This document shows, one piece after another, positions 999 to 8,833 of a DNA stretch of 64,000 bases (positions within the stretch are counted from its first letter, which is position 1; every line of letters starts with the position of its first letter). The translations under genes and the position numbers were made by a program. A model generated the notes under the pieces. The model saw only the letters and a program-made list of their open reading frames with translations. It was not told where the DNA came from and did not search any database. The stretch covers positions 37,634,001 to 37,698,000 of the forward strand of contig OX597830.1 of the NCBI GenBank assembly GCA_951406725.2, written 5' to 3'. The DNA comes from Octopus vulgaris. Taxonomy: Eukaryota.

Positions 999-2989
999 AG
1001 TCCTAACTTCTAGCAGTTCCGTTCACCAAAACTGATTAAATCCATCGAAATGTTCTTTTGAATCAAGATGTTTTTGTGAACAGCATGTAATATACGAACA
1101 TTTCCTTTGTATTTACAATGGCGAAAATCAATTGTTTTAATGTCAGTTGTAGATTGCAATTATCTCTCTTTTAAAATACACAACTTAATGTTGATTGAGG
1201 TAACTATATTATTGACTTGAAATTAATTCTTTGTGAACATAAAATGATAGTAAAGTTCTAAAGAGTCAGTCGATTAAATTATTTAAAATGAAAATTACAA
1301 AAAAAAAATTAAAATAAACAAGAACAATGAACTGGATCTTCAAATTTAAACTTTATGCTGGCTGAACGTATAATCAAAGGAATGTCTAAAGAGCATAAAG
1401 AATGCGCTGAGCAAAAATTGTATCTTTTCGCAAGTGAAATATGTAATTATTTGGCAAAAGAGAAAATTGTGAAGCCTATTTAATTCACTGTATTTCCGAC
1501 AGCGGTGTTCAGGAAAATGTGTCACGAAGACATCAGTTTAATGGCATTCAATTTAATGCTGTTTTCCGTCGCTTTCTCGCTATTCATGCTATGAAACAAA
1601 AGCTAAATTATACATTGTCTGTATTGTTCTTACGATGCTTATTGGAACTATACGCATTCGTTCGAACTGCTAGAAATAACTACCAAACATTCTTTAAACC
1701 ACGCACTACCGTCTAGAAAATTGGCAAGGTGTACCTACACTAAGAATAATATAGGAACATCTAGACTTAAATATTTTTGTTCATAGGTCTGATCAACTAG
1801 GATTGATATCGGATTGTGCAACGGATACAACGGCACAAAACGTCGAGTATTGCTTATGCATGAGCAAATCAAATAGAATATAGTTAACTTGGATTGTATT
1901 CTGTTGTTTTCGTCTACGTTGAGAGAAAAGACTTTAAATTTTGATTCTATGATTTTAAAAACTCTTCGAATTTGTGGACCTACGATGAAACATGGAGGAT
2001 ATTGATGAAAATATCTCACCATCGTATACTGGATATAGATGTAACAGTAACTAAAGCTGTATTAGAGTTGTATTTTGGTTTTGCTTTAATTTATCTTGGT
2101 ACAGAAACATAGAGGTTTCAGCGACACACCGCCTTAATCACGCGTCCAGATGCGGGATATTTTTAACTATATCGTTATGACTTCAGTAAATTTTTATGAC
2201 TTCGGGAGATTTCCGTATAATTCAACTACTGAAATATTAAACACAGTAAAACCTATTAATGGAGAGTTGTATATATTAAATATAACTATCAGACTTACGT
2301 TTTGTACGCTGCTAGCAAGGTTTTATTTTTTAGAAATAATATTAATTAACAAGGTCGAAATGATATTTGCACCATTACGTGATAGACGCAGTTAATGCCG
2401 TTGATGTTCAGTTTCAACAGCTGTATAGCAACATCTGGACGATAGACATGAGTCGAGATAAGTAATGAACATATGGGCTCCAGCTGGTTTTGTTAGCGGA
2501 TGTGAAAAAAATGAGGTGTGTAACGCGGGGAAGGATGAAGGAAGGTTTTACAAATACAGCGAGTTTCAAAAGTGTACAGGCCGACCGTTTTAGCAGTGAC
2601 AGGAGAGAATATCTTGGTAGCACCGTCACAAATTTAAGAATAATATTTTAATATAGATCACGTACGTGTTCAGTACAGAATCATGAACTGATAGCAACTG
2701 TTGTAGGTTACTAGCCAATATAAGGTGTATATCGTTGTAGGTTGCTAGATATTGTTTGGGTATTGTTTGGGATGCAGCTATTGTAATATGAGATTGGCAG
2801 CCGACATCATTAGAGACTGAATACCAGCTGTTTAAAGACCGTAAAAACTTACACTCATGTCATGTTGCCATTAAAAATGTGTACTGATGAAACGAGCGGG
2901 ACTCCCATGTATTAAGTGCAATGTTTCAAGAGTTGAATACTGATGAATTGATGTATCTATACGGTTCTATATTTAAGAGATGAGGAATT

Positions 2990-3142
2990 ATGTACATTTT
3001 TTACATTATTTATATTTGACGGATATTTGTCCTCACGTTGTTTGTTGTTAACACAACGTTTCGGTTGGTATACCCTCCAGCCTTCATCAGGTGTCTTGGG
3101 GAAATTTCGATCCTGGGTATTTATTCCTAAGGTAGTGCTCGA

Positions 3143-3146
<4 letters not shown>
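2990..3146 (-). mobile_element. Hammerhead-containing repeat tail (family H1), following an (AAT)n tract
   Basis: Homologous to 8681-8833 (+); both start AACATCGA immediately after (AAT)n. Confidence 0.8.
3050..3095 (-). ncRNA. Minimal type-I hammerhead ribozyme motif
   Basis: Minus: GACAC-CTGATGA-A-GGCTGG-AGGGTATA-CCAACC-GAAA-CG-TT-GTGTT; stem I GACAC/GTGTT, stem II GGCTGG/CCAACC (one mismatch), palindromic AACGTT at stem III. Confidence 0.75.
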
Positions 3147-3240
<94 letters not shown>

Positions 3241-3243
3241 CTT

Positions 3244-3275
<32 letters not shown>
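3145..3275. repeat. (TTA)n microsatellite abutting the 3' end of the R4/Dong element
   Basis: Directly visible. Confidence 0.95.
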
Positions 3276-3276
<1 letters not shown>

Positions 3277-6200
3277 TATGTTTGACTTTTGCTTTATATT
3301 TGTACAAGTTGGCTCCAAGTCTCACCCAGAGACCTCAAGAGACAACAGGGTTGGAAGTTCATGTTGTTGTTATGCCTAGTGTGCCATATATTTGGGGGGT
3401 GGGGATGTTGTACTAATGAATGTCTAAAAAAAAAAAAAAAAAAAGGTTTTTTTTTTTTGGTTTTTTTTTTAAACCGAAAATTATGTTTGTTTTAAACCTT
3501 GAGATTACATAGAGAGTATTTTGCGTAGGATATGAGCAGTTCCCATGAGCACTATCTTTTGAACTTCTGCCATTTTTGGGTTTCCTGGTATCTGAGTTAG
3601 GTAGCTATCAGCCCCTTTTGCTATCATTCCCAGGGCACCTATGACAACAGGTATTGTTTTAGTCTTCAGCTTCCACATTTTGCTGATTTCTATTTCAAGA
3701 TCTTTATATTTGCTCAGTTTTTGGTAGGTCTTGACAGATACGTTTATATCGATTGGGACAGTCATATCAATGAGGAGGCATGTTCTTTGTTTGAAGTTTT
3801 TCAATATGATGTCTGGCCTATTTGCATCTATCTTCCGGTCAGTTTGAATGGTGAAGTTCCAGAGGAGTGAGATGTGGTCATTTTCAAGCACTGGGGGTGG
3901 TTTGTGTTCCCACCAGTTTTTTTCATGGGGCAAATCCAGGTTTTTACAGATTACCCAGTGAATATATTGTGCAGCTCTATCGTGCCTGTTGAGATACTCT
4001 GTAGGCGCTAGAAGACTGCACTTGGAGACCACATGGTCAATGGTTTCATTTTGTTGCTTGCATACACGACACGTTGGACTGCTTCTGATCTTTAATATGT
4101 TGGCCTGGTAGTTTCTTGTTGGTAGGCATTGATCTTGAGCTGCTATGATAAACCCCTCTGTTTCAGATTTTAAGCCAGAGGCCATTAGCCATTGATGGGT
4201 CAGGGCTTTGTCGATATCTGCATTATTCGCTCTCTTTGGGTATTTGCCATAGAGAGGTTTTTCTTGCCATTTATTATTCAGAATATCTAAGGCCGCAGTT
4301 TTGGCACGGGTTTTCATGCGCCTAGCTTTTTCTGTGCTTGTTTCTTGTATATCTATCTCCGAAATTGGTTGTATTCGGAATTCACTTAGATATTCCTTTG
4401 CCTGTTTTGTGACTGAGTATGATGCTTTCTTGTTTTCATGTTTTGAGACAAGTTTTAGCATCCAGTCCTCAGAGTTTTTCAGGTAGGTGTCTAGGCCAAT
4501 TGTAGCAATCTTCATTGTTATTGCCAGTTGCAAAAGACCACGGCCTCCCTCTTTTCTTGGCAGATAGAGTCGTTCTGTATCTGCCTTAGGGTGGTGCATT
4601 CTATGCATTGTCAACAGTTTCCTTATTTTTCTGTCGAGCTGACATATTTCAGTAATTGACCAGTTAACAATATTGAAACTGTAAGTCACGACTGGTATAG
4701 CTAATGCATTGATTGCTTCGATCCTGTTTCTTGCATTCAGCTCTGTCTTGAGTATTGCTCTCACTCTTCGATAGCATTCTCTCCTGATCCTTTCCTTCAT
4801 CTCTGAATGCCTTATTCCGTTCCCTTCAATTATCCCTAGGTACTTGTAGCTCTCCGCTGGGTCTAGTTCTTTTATGACATTCTGTTGGTCAAGGTTAACG
4901 TTAGATGTTTCTGTCATTTTTCCTTTGATAAAGGTAGCCTTTGCACATTTATCGAGGCCGAATTGCATTCTGATGTCGTCACTGAATTGTTTGACTATCG
5001 CTAGTAAGCCCTTGAGTTGTTGATCATTTTTTGCAAAAAGCTTTAAATCATCCATGTAAACGAGATGATTTATATTTTTATCAAACATTTTATACCCGTA
5101 CTGCGCGTCATTGAGCAGCTTTGAGAGAGGTATTAAGGATAAACAAAAGAGGAGTGGTGACAGTGAGTCACCCTGGAAAATGCCACACGAAATTTTTACA
5201 TCACCAGCATTTAGGAATTCACTGTCACTGTTCAGAGTTAGTGTGGTTCTCCATGATCTCATACTTACAGTCAAGAAGTTTCGCAGAGTTGGTGCTATCT
5301 TATACATTTCAAGGCATTTTCTAATCCAGCTATGTGGTAGGCTATCAAAAGCCTTTTTATAGTCTATCCAGGCTATTGATAAGTTTTTGTGTCGTTTGTG
5401 ACAATCTTCTAAGATCATCTTATTGATGAGTAGTTGGTCTTTACAGCCGTAGGATCCACGTTTACATCCTTTCTGTTCATTAGGGAATATGCTGCTGTCT
5501 GTTAAAAAACTATAGGTATATTCCGTCAGGACAGATGTTAGTGTTTTGTACATAGTTGTTAAGCAAGTTATGGGTCTATAGTTTTTTGGTTCATTTGTTT
5601 CTTCACTTTTTGGAAGCAGGAATGTTAACCCATTAACTAGCCAAGGAGGCATCCTACTAGGGTGTTGCAAAACATCATTGTACAGTTCTGTTAGCAGTTC
5701 ATGGCTCTCTGGGAAGGCATTCAGCCAGAAGTTAGGAATTTTATCCTTTCCTGGAGACTTCCATTTGCTTGACCTCCTGAGAGCAGATCTTATATCTTCT
5801 ACCTTGACACCCTCCCACTTTTGCTCTTCTAAGGGGTCCAGTTCTGTAGATATTCTGTCAATCCAGGGGGCCTTTTCGTTGTGTGTTTTTTCTTCTGCCC
5901 AGATTTTATTCCAAAATCTCTGCACTTCTTCTTTTGATGGTACAGACCCTGCAGTAAACGCTGTTTTTCCTATCTTCCGGTAAAAATTCTTGGTGTTATT
6001 TTTGAACATGTTGTTGTCCTTGAAAAATCTAACACGCTTTTCATACCTCGCTATGCGGGCAGCTTTGGCAGATACCTTTTGTTTGATGGTTTCTATGGTG
6101 GCATCAATATCAAGTATAGTTTTCATATTGTATTTTTTCAGTAATTTTTGGGTTTTTGTAGGTTTGGTAATCTTGTGAGCCTTAAGGTTTTTCAAATATT

Positions 6201-8226
6201 CAATGTCAGATCTAAATATTTTAATTTGTTGTTGCAGACGCTCTTGCCAAGAAGGCTTTTTGTGGGACTGTTGCCGTTTTCTAATCTTTACACCACATAA
6301 GATCGTTGAGATTTTCGCGGATGCATAGTATAGGTGGTTGAGGTTTGTGATATCAACATCATTAACTGAAATTATATCCTTAAGTGCAAGCCGGATTTTA
6401 CCAATTATTTTCATGTTTTGGTTAGAGTTGCGGATTTTAGGAAGTGTATCACGCTCATCCATGCTGGTTTCTTTAATTTTCAGCCATTCAATCATGATTT
6501 GATTTTTTAGCTCATGTAGTTCTGTTGGGTCAATATTTGTGTGACTTTCTTTATCTATTTGATGCTCATCTGTCTTAGTGTTTATGATTGGTTCAGGGCG
6601 TATTTCACTTTGCCTATCACTTATACTAACTCTTTCAATCCTCTCTTCGTTTTTATCCGCCCTGGGCTGGTCTATAATCATTTCCTCTGTATTATCTTCT
6701 CTAGCTGCAGCTTCGTTCATTTTATCCGATATTGCTTGTCTAACCTGATCAATCTCTACTTCAGTCAGTAATTTCTTTTTTATAATGTTTCTTCTAACAT
6801 TGGCAAGCTTGTTACTGTCTATGTAGGGTCTTACTTCAGGGTGTTTCTGTCTCCAGTTTAAGTATGCTTGTACAGTGCTAGACTTATCTGTGGGGAAATA
6901 TATGGCATGGTAGAAGGCCTCAAGAACTTCTTTATTATCTTCCCTAGACCATTTTTCCTTCTTTTTCTTTTGATTATTTGGTGATGAGCATGGATGGCCA
7001 TCTGTTGGAATATTCCGGTTGTGGGGTTCGTCCAGCTCCTGTGTGTTGGGAAGATTTGATCCAGTAACTGATTTTTCAATCAGGATTTGGTTCAATTTTC
7101 GGGTACGTGGTCTTTTGTAATCCGCGCAATGACCAATGCGGTTTATTGTTTGATTTGTTGACCTTGAAGCATGACGAGCATCCATTCTTATATTAGGAGA
7201 TGGATCTGTCAGTTTAGGGTTCACTACGTGTAAGCATTGCTCATAGCGCCGCTTCTTAAGACTAGCAGATCTATATTCGTCTGTATTTTTTTTGTTGATA
7301 GTTTTATCTCCGGACATTTTTTTTTTTTTTTTTTTCCTTTCCTCCTCTTCCTTTCTTCAAGGCTTACTGTGTCTGTATTAGTTCGAAATAATGAGAATAA
7401 AATACGGAGAAGGAAACGAAAAGAAAGGGAAAAAGACGGGATCTGTCAGTTATTATTGTTATTACTATCATCTTCACCACCATCACCATCATCAGCAACA
7501 TCACCATCACCATCATCATCTTCAATGACATTGTTTTATGTGTAGCCACAGCCACCATCAACACTCCATTGTGTTGGAGAATGGGTGGTTAAAGAATTCA
7601 TGTTCTTTGGGTCTATAAATAGCCACGGTAGATGGAGACAAAGGACGTTAATGGTCAGTAAAAGGTCAAACCTGTTTACGTTTATTTATTTATTTATTTT
7701 TTTTTTTCCTTTCTCTTTTCTTCTTCACCACATGCATATGTATATGTATATATATGTATATTCACTCACACATATTATCTGATGTTTTCGTCGAAGATTT
7801 TTTTTTCTTTTTTAAATAACTTTCTGAGTTCAATGTTATGTATATATTTTTAAATTTCTGAATTCAGTTGTATGTATATAGTAGTAGGTGCTTAATTCCA
7901 TAACTTTTTATCGTGCATTTAATTGTGTTGTTACAATAAAAGGTAATTTAAAAGGCAATTTTACACATTCTTATAGTCATGAGAGACGACTAAATGTAAA
8001 TGTTCACACAGAATTGGAGATATTTATGTTTCTAATTTTTCTTGTTAGGTGTACGTTTGTATGAGCTGTAGATATGTAAGTTTTTTTTTACTTATTTTGA
8101 GGGTAATTCAAATTACTTACAGTAAACAGTAGATCTTCCAGTTTTCTACAGTTGACCTGCTGGGTTCGCTGTTGCCAGTTCAGAGCATCGTAAAAATACG
8201 TCCATCCTCTGTCACGTCCAGCCGCC
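3276..8226 (-). mobile_element. R4/Dong-clade non-LTR retrotransposon, probably full length (5' boundary inferred)
   Basis: Single RT-RLE ORF; ~230-bp 3' UTR ending directly in (AAT)n at 3275; next pure (AAT)n tract upstream at 8227-8285 taken as the 5' limit. Confidence 0.7.
3505..7317 (-). CDS. Non-LTR retrotransposon polyprotein: reverse transcriptase + CCHC zinc knuckle + restriction-like endonuclease (R4/Dong type), 1270 aa, uninterrupted
   Basis: RT motifs KSPGKD, NYRPITCL, WIDYKKAFDS, GIFQGDSLSPLLF, YMDD, YKYLG; CRVCKQQNETIDHVVSKC; RHD; RPDIIL..LLIDMTVP..KLSKYKDL; N-terminal KWSREDNKEVLEAFY typical of R4/Dong. Confidence 0.95.
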   Translation of the reverse strand: MSGDKTINKKNTDEYRSASLKKRRYEQCLHVVNPKLTDPSPNIRMDARHASRSTNQTINRIGHCADYKRPRTRKLNQILIEKSVTGSNLPNTQELDEPHNRNIPTDGHPCSSPNNQKKKKEKWSREDNKEVLEAFYHAIYFPTDKSSTVQAYLNWRQKHPEVRPYIDSNKLANVRRNIIKKKLLTEVEIDQVRQAISDKMNEAAAREDNTEEMIIDQPRADKNEERIERVSISDRQSEIRPEPIINTKTDEHQIDKESHTNIDPTELHELKNQIMIEWLKIKETSMDERDTLPKIRNSNQNMKIIGKIRLALKDIISVNDVDITNLNHLYYASAKISTILCGVKIRKRQQSHKKPSWQERLQQQIKIFRSDIEYLKNLKAHKITKPTKTQKLLKKYNMKTILDIDATIETIKQKVSAKAARIARYEKRVRFFKDNNMFKNNTKNFYRKIGKTAFTAGSVPSKEEVQRFWNKIWAEEKTHNEKAPWIDRISTELDPLEEQKWEGVKVEDIRSALRRSSKWKSPGKDKIPNFWLNAFPESHELLTELYNDVLQHPSRMPPWLVNGLTFLLPKSEETNEPKNYRPITCLTTMYKTLTSVLTEYTYSFLTDSSIFPNEQKGCKRGSYGCKDQLLINKMILEDCHKRHKNLSIAWIDYKKAFDSLPHSWIRKCLEMYKIAPTLRNFLTVSMRSWRTTLTLNSDSEFLNAGDVKISCGIFQGDSLSPLLFCLSLIPLSKLLNDAQYGYKMFDKNINHLVYMDDLKLFAKNDQQLKGLLAIVKQFSDDIRMQFGLDKCAKATFIKGKMTETSNVNLDQQNVIKELDPAESYKYLGIIEGNGIRHSEMKERIRRECYRRVRAILKTELNARNRIEAINALAIPVVTYSFNIVNWSITEICQLDRKIRKLLTMHRMHHPKADTERLYLPRKEGGRGLLQLAITMKIATIGLDTYLKNSEDWMLKLVSKHENKKASYSVTKQAKEYLSEFRIQPISEIDIQETSTEKARRMKTRAKTAALDILNNKWQEKPLYGKYPKRANNADIDKALTHQWLMASGLKSETEGFIIAAQDQCLPTRNYQANILKIRSSPTCRVCKQQNETIDHVVSKCSLLAPTEYLNRHDRAAQYIHWVICKNLDLPHEKNWWEHKPPPVLENDHISLLWNFTIQTDRKIDANRPDIILKNFKQRTCLLIDMTVPIDINVSVKTYQKLSKYKDLEIEISKMWKLKTKTIPVVIGALGMIAKGADSYLTQIPGNPKMAEVQKIVLMGTAHILRKILSM

Positions 8227-8285
<59 letters not shown>
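8227..8285. repeat. (TTA)n microsatellite
   Basis: Directly visible. Confidence 0.95.
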
Positions 8286-8286
<1 letters not shown>

Positions 8287-8358
8287 GGGTTACTGCCTGG
8301 AATCGAACTCGGTATCTTGGGGTTAGTAGCCCGCGCTCTTAACCACTACGCCATATGC
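8286..8358 (-). mobile_element. tRNA-like SINE head (Pol III A and B boxes) running into (AAT)n
   Basis: Minus: GCATATGGCGTAGTGGTTAAGAGCGCGGGCTACTAACCCCAAGATACCGAGTTCGATTCCAGGCAGTAACCCG; A box TGGCGTAGTGG, B box GAGTTCGATTCC; no good acceptor stem. Confidence 0.75.
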
Positions 8359-8488
8359 TAGGACACAACAACCTCCTAAGCAGACCGAGTGCAGATATGA
8401 ATAGCATATGGGATAAGGTATTAAGGAAGGATAGGAAAACATTAGATTTATAAGCCCTAAAATTCACTTCACAATTGCCCGCTGGCTG

Positions 8489-8618
8489 AATAATAATAAC
8501 AATAACAATAACAACTACAACAACAACAACAACAGGAACAACAAGAATAACAAGAACAACTGGAACAACAACAACAACAACAGTAATAATAATGATAATA
8601 ATAATAATAATAATAATG

Positions 8619-8680
<62 letters not shown>
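8489..8680. repeat. (AAC)n/(AAT)n microsatellite
   Basis: Directly visible. Confidence 0.95.
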
Positions 8681-8684
<4 letters not shown>

Positions 8685-8833
8685 TCGAACAATACCTTAG
8701 GAATGGGAACCCAGGTTAGAAATTTCCCGAAGACAGCTGATGATGGCTGGAGGGTAAATCAGCCGAAAAGTTGTGTTAACAACAAACAAGATGCGGACAA
8801 ATATCCGTCAAATGTAAATAATGTAAATAATGT
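8681..8833 (+). mobile_element. Second H1 tail with hammerhead motif at 8732-8777 (stem I and III substitutions)
   Basis: GACAG-CTGATGA-T-GGCTG-GAGGGTAAAT-CAGCC-GAAA-AG-TT-GTGTT; inverted homologue of 2990-3146. Confidence 0.75.

Follow-up and report, generated by a model that had tools for sequence, protein, structure and literature searches.

Retrotransposons of the Penelope/Poseidon type, such as Poseidon PAc of Anolis (PMC11167929) and the Penelope elements of Adineta (PMC3846280) and D. virilis (PMC2377424), are Penelope-like elements (PLEs) in which just one open reading frame (ORF) encodes a reverse transcriptase (RT) with a C-terminal GIY-YIG endonuclease (EN), in which a pseudo-long terminal repeat (pLTR) with a minimal hammerhead overlaps the start of that ORF, and whose insertions show an inverted 5'-truncated arm, a 30-40-nt tail on one arm and microhomology or palindromes at their junctions. 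Here we describe a family with all these features, found in a 64,000-nt stretch of the Octopus vulgaris genome (contig OX597830.1, positions 37,634,001 to 37,698,000; hereafter the window, whose own positions serve as coordinates, with strands given as (-) or (+) relative to the forward strand). The octopus pLTR differs from its relatives in that it begins with a tRNA-derived head carrying A and B boxes, followed by an expandable (AAT)n spacer, whereas the pLTR promoters described in this literature are of the RNA polymerase II (Pol II) type, and also in that copies of the size of a solo pLTR dominate (~10^4).

Three other kinds of elements resemble this unit in part. The Sm-alpha and Sj-alpha elements of Schistosoma, which resemble short interspersed elements (SINEs), also combine an RNA polymerase III (Pol III)-type promoter with a hammerhead in a short repeat, but they are described as tandem, non-coding and released by cleavage (PMC6765202), whereas the octopus unit is found in dispersed inverted pairs and serves a coding element as terminal repeat. 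Animal non-LTR retrozymes, which have been proposed to use PLE enzymes, likewise consist of short repeats with a type-I hammerhead and are related to PLE pLTRs (PMC7229834; bioRxiv 10.64898/2026.07.22.740005). Unlike them, the octopus unit does not form head-to-tail tandem monomers (its copies are mostly single or inverted and direct repeats are rare), shows no sign of circles and has a tRNA head, and its ORF-bearing parent could be identified directly. Finally, Cassandra, Helenus and Ajax also carry a small-RNA-derived sequence inside a terminal repeat, but these are non-autonomous LTR retrotransposons and not PLEs (PMC10886601).

We propose, with a probability of about 0.6, that the unit made of head, (AAT)n spacer and hammerhead-bearing tail is the pLTR of a Penelope/Poseidon element and that its tRNA-derived head is likely an internal promoter for Pol III by which the RNA's 5' end is determined. 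The first half of this reading is directly visible: the unit belongs, as its native pLTR, to an autonomous Penelope/Poseidon retrotransposon. The stretch at 8359-8495, which lies between the head (8286-8358, (-)) and the second of two tails found in the window, is itself a repeat and, followed upstream, leads into sequence coding for an RT and a GIY-YIG endonuclease, in an ORF that ends ~35 nt upstream of the head. This ORF end was found directly upstream of a head on the same strand in 28/29 ORF-end loci (L062-L090) and in 24/29 ORF-body loci (L092-L120). At the other side of the unit, the reading frame stays open from the tail, across the hammerhead, to the N-terminus of the ORF, and in full-length copies the tail makes up the 5' untranslated region (UTR) and the ORF start; most of the 66 inspected loci, among 67 exact matches to the 5' end of the ORF, have part of the tail directly upstream. 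The order of the element is thus ORF end, head, AAT, tail with hammerhead and ORF start, which identifies the unit as the pLTR of a Penelope/Poseidon element. The initial annotation of this locus, made from the window sequence, had seen in it a composite SINE-like element, and it had suggested that the tail be compared with the pLTRs of autonomous PLEs. The tail does belong to the pLTR of a Penelope in the same genome; the composite itself did not hold, because the head belongs to that autonomous element as well.

Assignment to the Penelope/Poseidon clade is by domains and structure. A 569-aa RT-EN frame is present in locus L191 and a near-complete, broken ORF in locus L194, giving the single ORF with RT and C-terminal GIY-YIG endonuclease that is typical of the clade; the pLTR overlaps the ORF start and contains a minimal hammerhead. 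The match of the RT-EN frame to Pfam RVT_1 (E=2.7e-6) is below the cut-off of that family, similarities of 0.96-0.97 to RVT_1/HTH_animal/GIY-YIG clusters in Atlas are leads only, and searches of Pfam and PDB with the EN fragment alone gave no match. The extra CX2-5CxxC finger that Neptune and Nematis have before the GIY-YIG domain (PMC8557442) was absent by eye from the translations of the L191 and L194 ORFs. A fragment of a Mariner-like transposase, also recognized by eye, lies beside one Penelope copy (L081:2720-3073).

Head and tail are linked well beyond the window. Among the first 30, by position, of 2179 exact occurrences of a head 22-mer, 22 have a tail on the same strand within 300 nt downstream, three have one farther away and five have none within 1.5 kb; similarly, 29 head loci picked by BLAST gave 22 with a tail within 300 nt downstream, three with a tail farther off and four with none. 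When 29 loci were picked by their tail, a head was found within 300 nt upstream in 12 and farther in four, while 13 had none within 1.5 kb. These last 13 are what one could cite if head and tails were unrelated neighbours, which the initial annotation had kept as its alternative; however, tails without a head are consistent with 5' truncation or with insertions in the AAT spacer, and the same-strand linkage in 22/30 position-ordered loci refutes that alternative, to which we leave virtually no probability. The original idea of one unit split by a Dong-type insertion therefore stands. Exact 22-mer counts were 2179 for the head, 991 for the segment 25-46 nt upstream of it, 5933 for the hammerhead and 67 for the 5' end of the ORF. 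Once corrected, such counts give rough estimates, assuming equal divergence across copy classes, of ~26k hammerheads, ~11.5k heads and ~1.9k ORF ends, with short copies outnumbering ORF-linked copies by about six to one. Family matches in 4/40 stretches of a random 400-kb genome sample are of the same order as these estimates, although too few for counts of structures. Copies of the family are ~90-95% identical to their majority sequence. Short interspersed repeats of other kinds were seen beside or inside the AAT spacer in the flanks of L008, L009, L181 and L182, and one of them starts like a tRNA.

The excess of short, SINE-looking copies could also mean that they form a separate tRNA-SINE family that has a source gene of its own, borrowed a Penelope tail and is moved in trans by the Penelope RT, and solo pLTRs could serve as secondary sources. 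We consider this quite improbable: the head, although tRNA-related and provided with A and B boxes as expected of a SINE, belongs to the autonomous element itself, and majority head sequences are identical among 50 ORF-linked, 27 short and 16 short copies. A non-autonomous family separate from its partner, with the 3' tail of a long interspersed element (LINE) and a simple-repeat 3' end, is not what is seen here, as the unit is part of an autonomous element, its head has no diagnostic differences and its copies end at PLE RT-start sites.

The tail carries a minimal type-I hammerhead, identified by motif inspection at 3050-3095 (-) in the first tail. Its stem I pairs 3095-3091 with 3054-3050 (5 bp), the CUGAUGA core lies at 3090-3084 and GAAA-CG-UU at 3062-3055; it has a GUU triplet, a 6-bp stem II with one mismatch and a palindromic ACGU stem III of two base pairs, and the predicted cut falls after 3055. 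A search of Rfam gave no match for this hammerhead. In the majority sequence of 230 tail matches, the CUGANGA and GAAA cores, a NUH triplet, stems I and II and the palindromic stem III are all present, which agrees with the minimal type described for PLE pLTRs (PMC4209133) and bears out the initial annotation on this point. Across the copies, 95.1% of cells are paired, for a structure drawn from the same majority, and the main core polymorphism outside CpG sites affects the free position N7 (U 147, A 32). Deletions are enriched by the predicted cut, with 36/192 at tail position 90 against 3-8 at most positions; small deletions at tail positions 90-92 (window 3057-3055, (-)) concern 34-36 of ~190 copies and could be a footprint of cleavage or result from slippage in a short repeat. 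The 5' starts of tails showed no peak at the predicted cut site, and no RNA ends were found there in RNA-seq reads, a library type unsuited to such a search. In Poseidon, RNA cleavage depended on protein, and insertion in vitro did not call for it (PMC11167929). In order to cut, the octopus hammerhead would have to be in a dimer or be helped by a protein, and it may be dispensable for insertion. Internally deleted derivatives made of head, AAT, tail, short ORF start and second tail were also observed (L248/L302, at G000:C2:183442500-183443000; L301; L295); they carry two hammerheads in direct orientation and could be retrozyme-like dimers able to self-process.

The second half of the proposal concerns the head. 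On the minus strand of the window, its A box (8353-8343) and B box (8308-8299) are intact, and both boxes are also intact and correctly spaced in the majority head sequence of the copies. ARAGORN and Rfam did not call the head as a tRNA; it can nevertheless be aligned end to end with tRNA genes of genome G000, with best scores of 45-51 against ~17+-5 for shuffled tRNAs. Arg and Asn tRNAs match it about equally, with isotypes sampled only in part, which does not fix the source tRNA. A cluster of ~24 tRNA-Asn(GTT)-like matches was noticed in the same genome (G000:C20:52848000-52928000).

Copies of the family have a sharp 5' boundary at this head. Among the position-ordered head copies, 27/30 start 0-9 nt upstream of the head, ~13 nt before the intact A box, whereas 5' ends farther upstream are spread at 0.0023/nt (28 events in 12,086 nt), for which 3.9% would be expected in 17 nt. 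The simplest reading of the boundary is that the RNA starts there, at a distance from the A box (~13 nt) that is usual for Pol III. ORF-start copies give a few more cases: of three that reach the upstream head, two (L248, itself an internally deleted derivative, and L283) begin there. Runs of four T on the sense strand, which number 10 in the 3.85 kb of the Dong ORF, are absent from 2.4 kb of the Penelope family, for 2.4-3.7 expected (P 0.013-0.066). A supposed second PLE family in L085 turned out to be the same family, which leaves no in-genome PLE control for these T runs. From such sequence evidence, we find it very probable that the 5' end of the family RNA lies at the tRNA-like head, which is likely a tRNA-type promoter, and, with appreciably less assurance, we take Pol III as the likely polymerase.

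A boundary of this kind might also arise without any RNA start, if the cDNA made on a long RNA stalled and folded back at a palindrome just upstream of the head, or if RNase P cut the tRNA-like fold. Many junctions are indeed fold-backs at this palindrome, and self-priming at pLTR palindromes has been proposed earlier (PMC3846280). Partner arms were used to weigh this possibility. Of the ORF-bearing insertions examined, 35 had a partner arm next to them and 32 others had none there; among the 35 partners, 17 extend past the head, 16 end within tail or spacer and two end at the head. Arms that reach the site thus stop there in 2/19 cases, as compared to starts at the site in 27/30 head loci (Fisher P=2.5e-8); put differently, 17/19 run through in ORF-bearing insertions but only 3/30 in head-picked loci, showing that the site is not a general RT stop. 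In addition, 6/27 short copies have no inverted arm and still start at the same place and, against the RNase P variant, native sequence continues 4-8 nt past the head in many copies, beyond the +1 of a mature tRNA. Altogether, an origin of the boundary by stalling or RNase P cleavage appears improbable.

Several observations weigh against the proposal. A hand count adds partner arms that stop at the head (L120; L247, L291 and L298; and the window itself), for a total of ~6/28 with the window excluded (3/8 in ORF-start loci), or roughly one in five partner arms of long insertions; this is above background and far below 90%, and indicates that some stopping or fold-back does occur there. The third ORF-start copy that reaches the upstream head (L285) is a tandem read-through past it. 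The lack of T runs is weak, since runs of four G are missing too (0 against 2.7 expected). An uncapped Pol III RNA would translate poorly. For the hammerhead, substitutions are hardly rarer in the core than elsewhere (3.9% vs 4.8%), and the core is intact in 85/174 copies; the cores that the initial annotation had required of a consensus tail are present, but the stem covariation that it also required was absent, with one two-sided change and 216/500 shuffles scoring as high, in copies too alike to give the comparison power. Palindromes at the 5' ends of pLTRs (PMC3846280) and Pol II-type pLTR promoters (PMC3846280; PMC2377424) had both been described before.

The RNA data, which comprise one contig set and three RNA-seq runs, all unstranded, from organism B (which need not be the species of the window), bear little on a short Pol III RNA in either direction. 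The element was covered on both strands, with a profile like that of its genomic copies, and the three runs and the contig set displayed no discrete starts, ends or strand bias. Depth changes between the head and the ORF end by ~2.4x in RNA against ~6x in the genome, and this smaller step mildly argues against an abundant short Pol III RNA in these libraries. In a search of sequencing runs, no run recorded as RNA was listed as carrying the element. At L083:1230-2691, A>G and T>C were the commonest differences in RNA reads; they may be mutations of the reference copy itself or editing of duplexes formed by inverted arms.

Another explanation keeps the same Penelope and the same RNA start but attributes it to an internal, Inr-type Pol II promoter like that of D. 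virilis Penelope; the tRNA-like sequence would then be a captured remnant without a promoter role. The Pol II-like promoters known from other pLTRs (PMC2377424, PMC3846280) speak for it, as does the need of the ORF for a translatable RNA and the fact that the head no longer scores as a tRNA. However, both boxes stay intact and correctly spaced in the majority sequence of a head that has lost its tRNA score, and the position of the start relative to the A box and the absence of T runs also speak against this explanation, which we find unlikely, though slightly less so than stalling or RNase P cleavage.

Regardless of the polymerase, the insertions themselves strongly support a Penelope-type mobilization of the unit, as judged from the structure of its copies. 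Tails end near position 150 (111/237) or near position 185 (98/237), and the long form carries an extension of ~34 nt that its short partner lacks. Out of 81 inverted pairs, 63 associate a long and a short arm, four are short and short, two are long and long and 12 could not be classified; when two duplicate loci are left out, long+short combinations make up 61 of the 67 classifiable pairs (P=7e-13 against 50%). An inverted 5'-truncated arm together with a 30-40-nt tail on one end only is what is known for PLEs (PMC8557442, PMC3846280), and Poseidon of Anolis was shown in vitro to use two internal RT start sites with priming on both strands (PMC11167929). The octopus pairs match both descriptions, and mobilization by a Penelope-type RT rather than by a LINE, as first suggested from the window alone, is thereby upheld; their composition also amounts to genome-scale support for the two-site, both-strand priming of Poseidon. 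In the mechanism that we propose, the RNA would start ~8 nt upstream of the head, with its 5' end set by the tRNA-derived head acting as internal Pol III promoter. The RT/endonuclease of the element would nick both strands of an AT-rich target and cDNA would start at two tail sites (~150 and ~187). Priming in a pLTR close to the RNA's 5' end, whether that pLTR is the upstream one in a full-length RNA or belongs to a solo-pLTR transcript, would give SINE-like arms of ~330 nt, while priming in the downstream pLTR would give ORF-bearing arms. The two cDNA 3' ends would then be joined by microhomology or by fold-back at a small palindrome at the RNA 5' end. When transcribed, thousands of such inverted pairs would form double-stranded RNA.

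A more far-reaching version, which we regard as doubtful, is that this protein-coding retrotransposon is transcribed over its full length by Pol III from a captured tRNA promoter, as a terminator-free RNA of ~3 kb, and that internal RT priming on this RNA and on solo-pLTR transcripts yields the ~10^4 SINE-like copies. By definition, SINEs are Pol III RNAs that depend on LINEs for their movement; if this version were true, the element would be its own SINE and its own LINE-like helper.

The new part is the sharp 5' boundary at the tRNA-like head of a PLE pLTR, which we see as a likely Pol III promoter. Titles and the openings of abstracts revealed no PLE with a tRNA-derived or Pol III promoter in a search that left aside Repbase, Dfam, SINEBase and subscription papers, and repeat libraries may hold the family. 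The short form may earlier have been catalogued as a SINE without its Penelope parent. Octopus tRNA-SINEs with a tRNA-derived head, called OK, OR1 and OR2, were reportedly described by Ohshima and Okada in 1994. OR2 is named in PMC4758252, and an annotation of octopus repeats lists Penelope, SINE and Dong-R4 families, with the word ribozyme absent from the accessible part of that source (PMC13282606). A tRNA-type promoter inside an autonomous Penelope repeat, marking the 5' end of ~10^4 copies, would provide a direct route from a PLE to SINE-like repeats that bear a hammerhead; for Sm-alpha-like elements and retrozymes, it would supply a concrete model. It also calls for caution, as Penelope pLTRs may be among the repeats annotated as tRNA-SINEs.

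In the window, the locus is almost certainly one Penelope/Poseidon insertion that was secondarily struck by a Dong-type element. It is a single two-armed inverted insertion, whose plus arm consists of ORF end, AAT and tail, the head being deleted, while its minus arm consists of head, AAT and tail. The plus arm begins with the last 31 codons of the Penelope ORF (the GIY-YIG end, with a stop at 8451-8453) and the 3' UTR (8358-8488, (+)), followed by an (AAC/AAT)n spacer (8489-8682, (+)) and a short-form tail (8681-8833, (+)) that ends at ~153, is 87% identical to the other tail and has a hammerhead (8732-8777) with damage in stems I and III. The minus arm carries the long-form tail (2960-3146, (-)), which ends at ~187 and includes the ~34-nt extension at 2960-2993. 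A 7-nt microhomology (8352-8358) joins the two arms. All features of the initial annotation were recovered at the places where it had put them; yet it had missed the extension of the minus tail to ~2960 and the ORF end at 8358-8480 (+), and the plus-strand tail, which it rightly located, is not a separate tail pointing away but the other arm of the same insertion.

The spacer of the minus arm is interrupted by an intact element of the R2 superfamily at 3276-8226 (-), with (AAT)n on both of its sides (3145-3275 on its 3' side and 8227-8285 on its 5' side, both (-)). Its ORF (7356-3505, (-); 1283 aa stop to stop) is intact and R2-like over the RT and the C-terminus; the element probably belongs to the R4/Dong clade, whose members have an RT with a C-terminal zinc knuckle and a restriction-like endonuclease and a presumed preference for (TAA)n targets. 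Other Dong copies, 96-99% identical, are found elsewhere (L138, L184, L186), and independent Dong insertions or fragments occupy the same spacer at L038, L046 and L179. These identities of up to 96-99%, as compared to ~90-95% for the Penelope family, and the repeated hits in the spacer indicate that the Dong insertion is secondary: a young, possibly active element would have inserted later into the AAT spacer of the minus arm. Over the whole window (1-64000), microsatellites are very dense (116 TRF rows) and the remaining long ORFs mostly overlap them.

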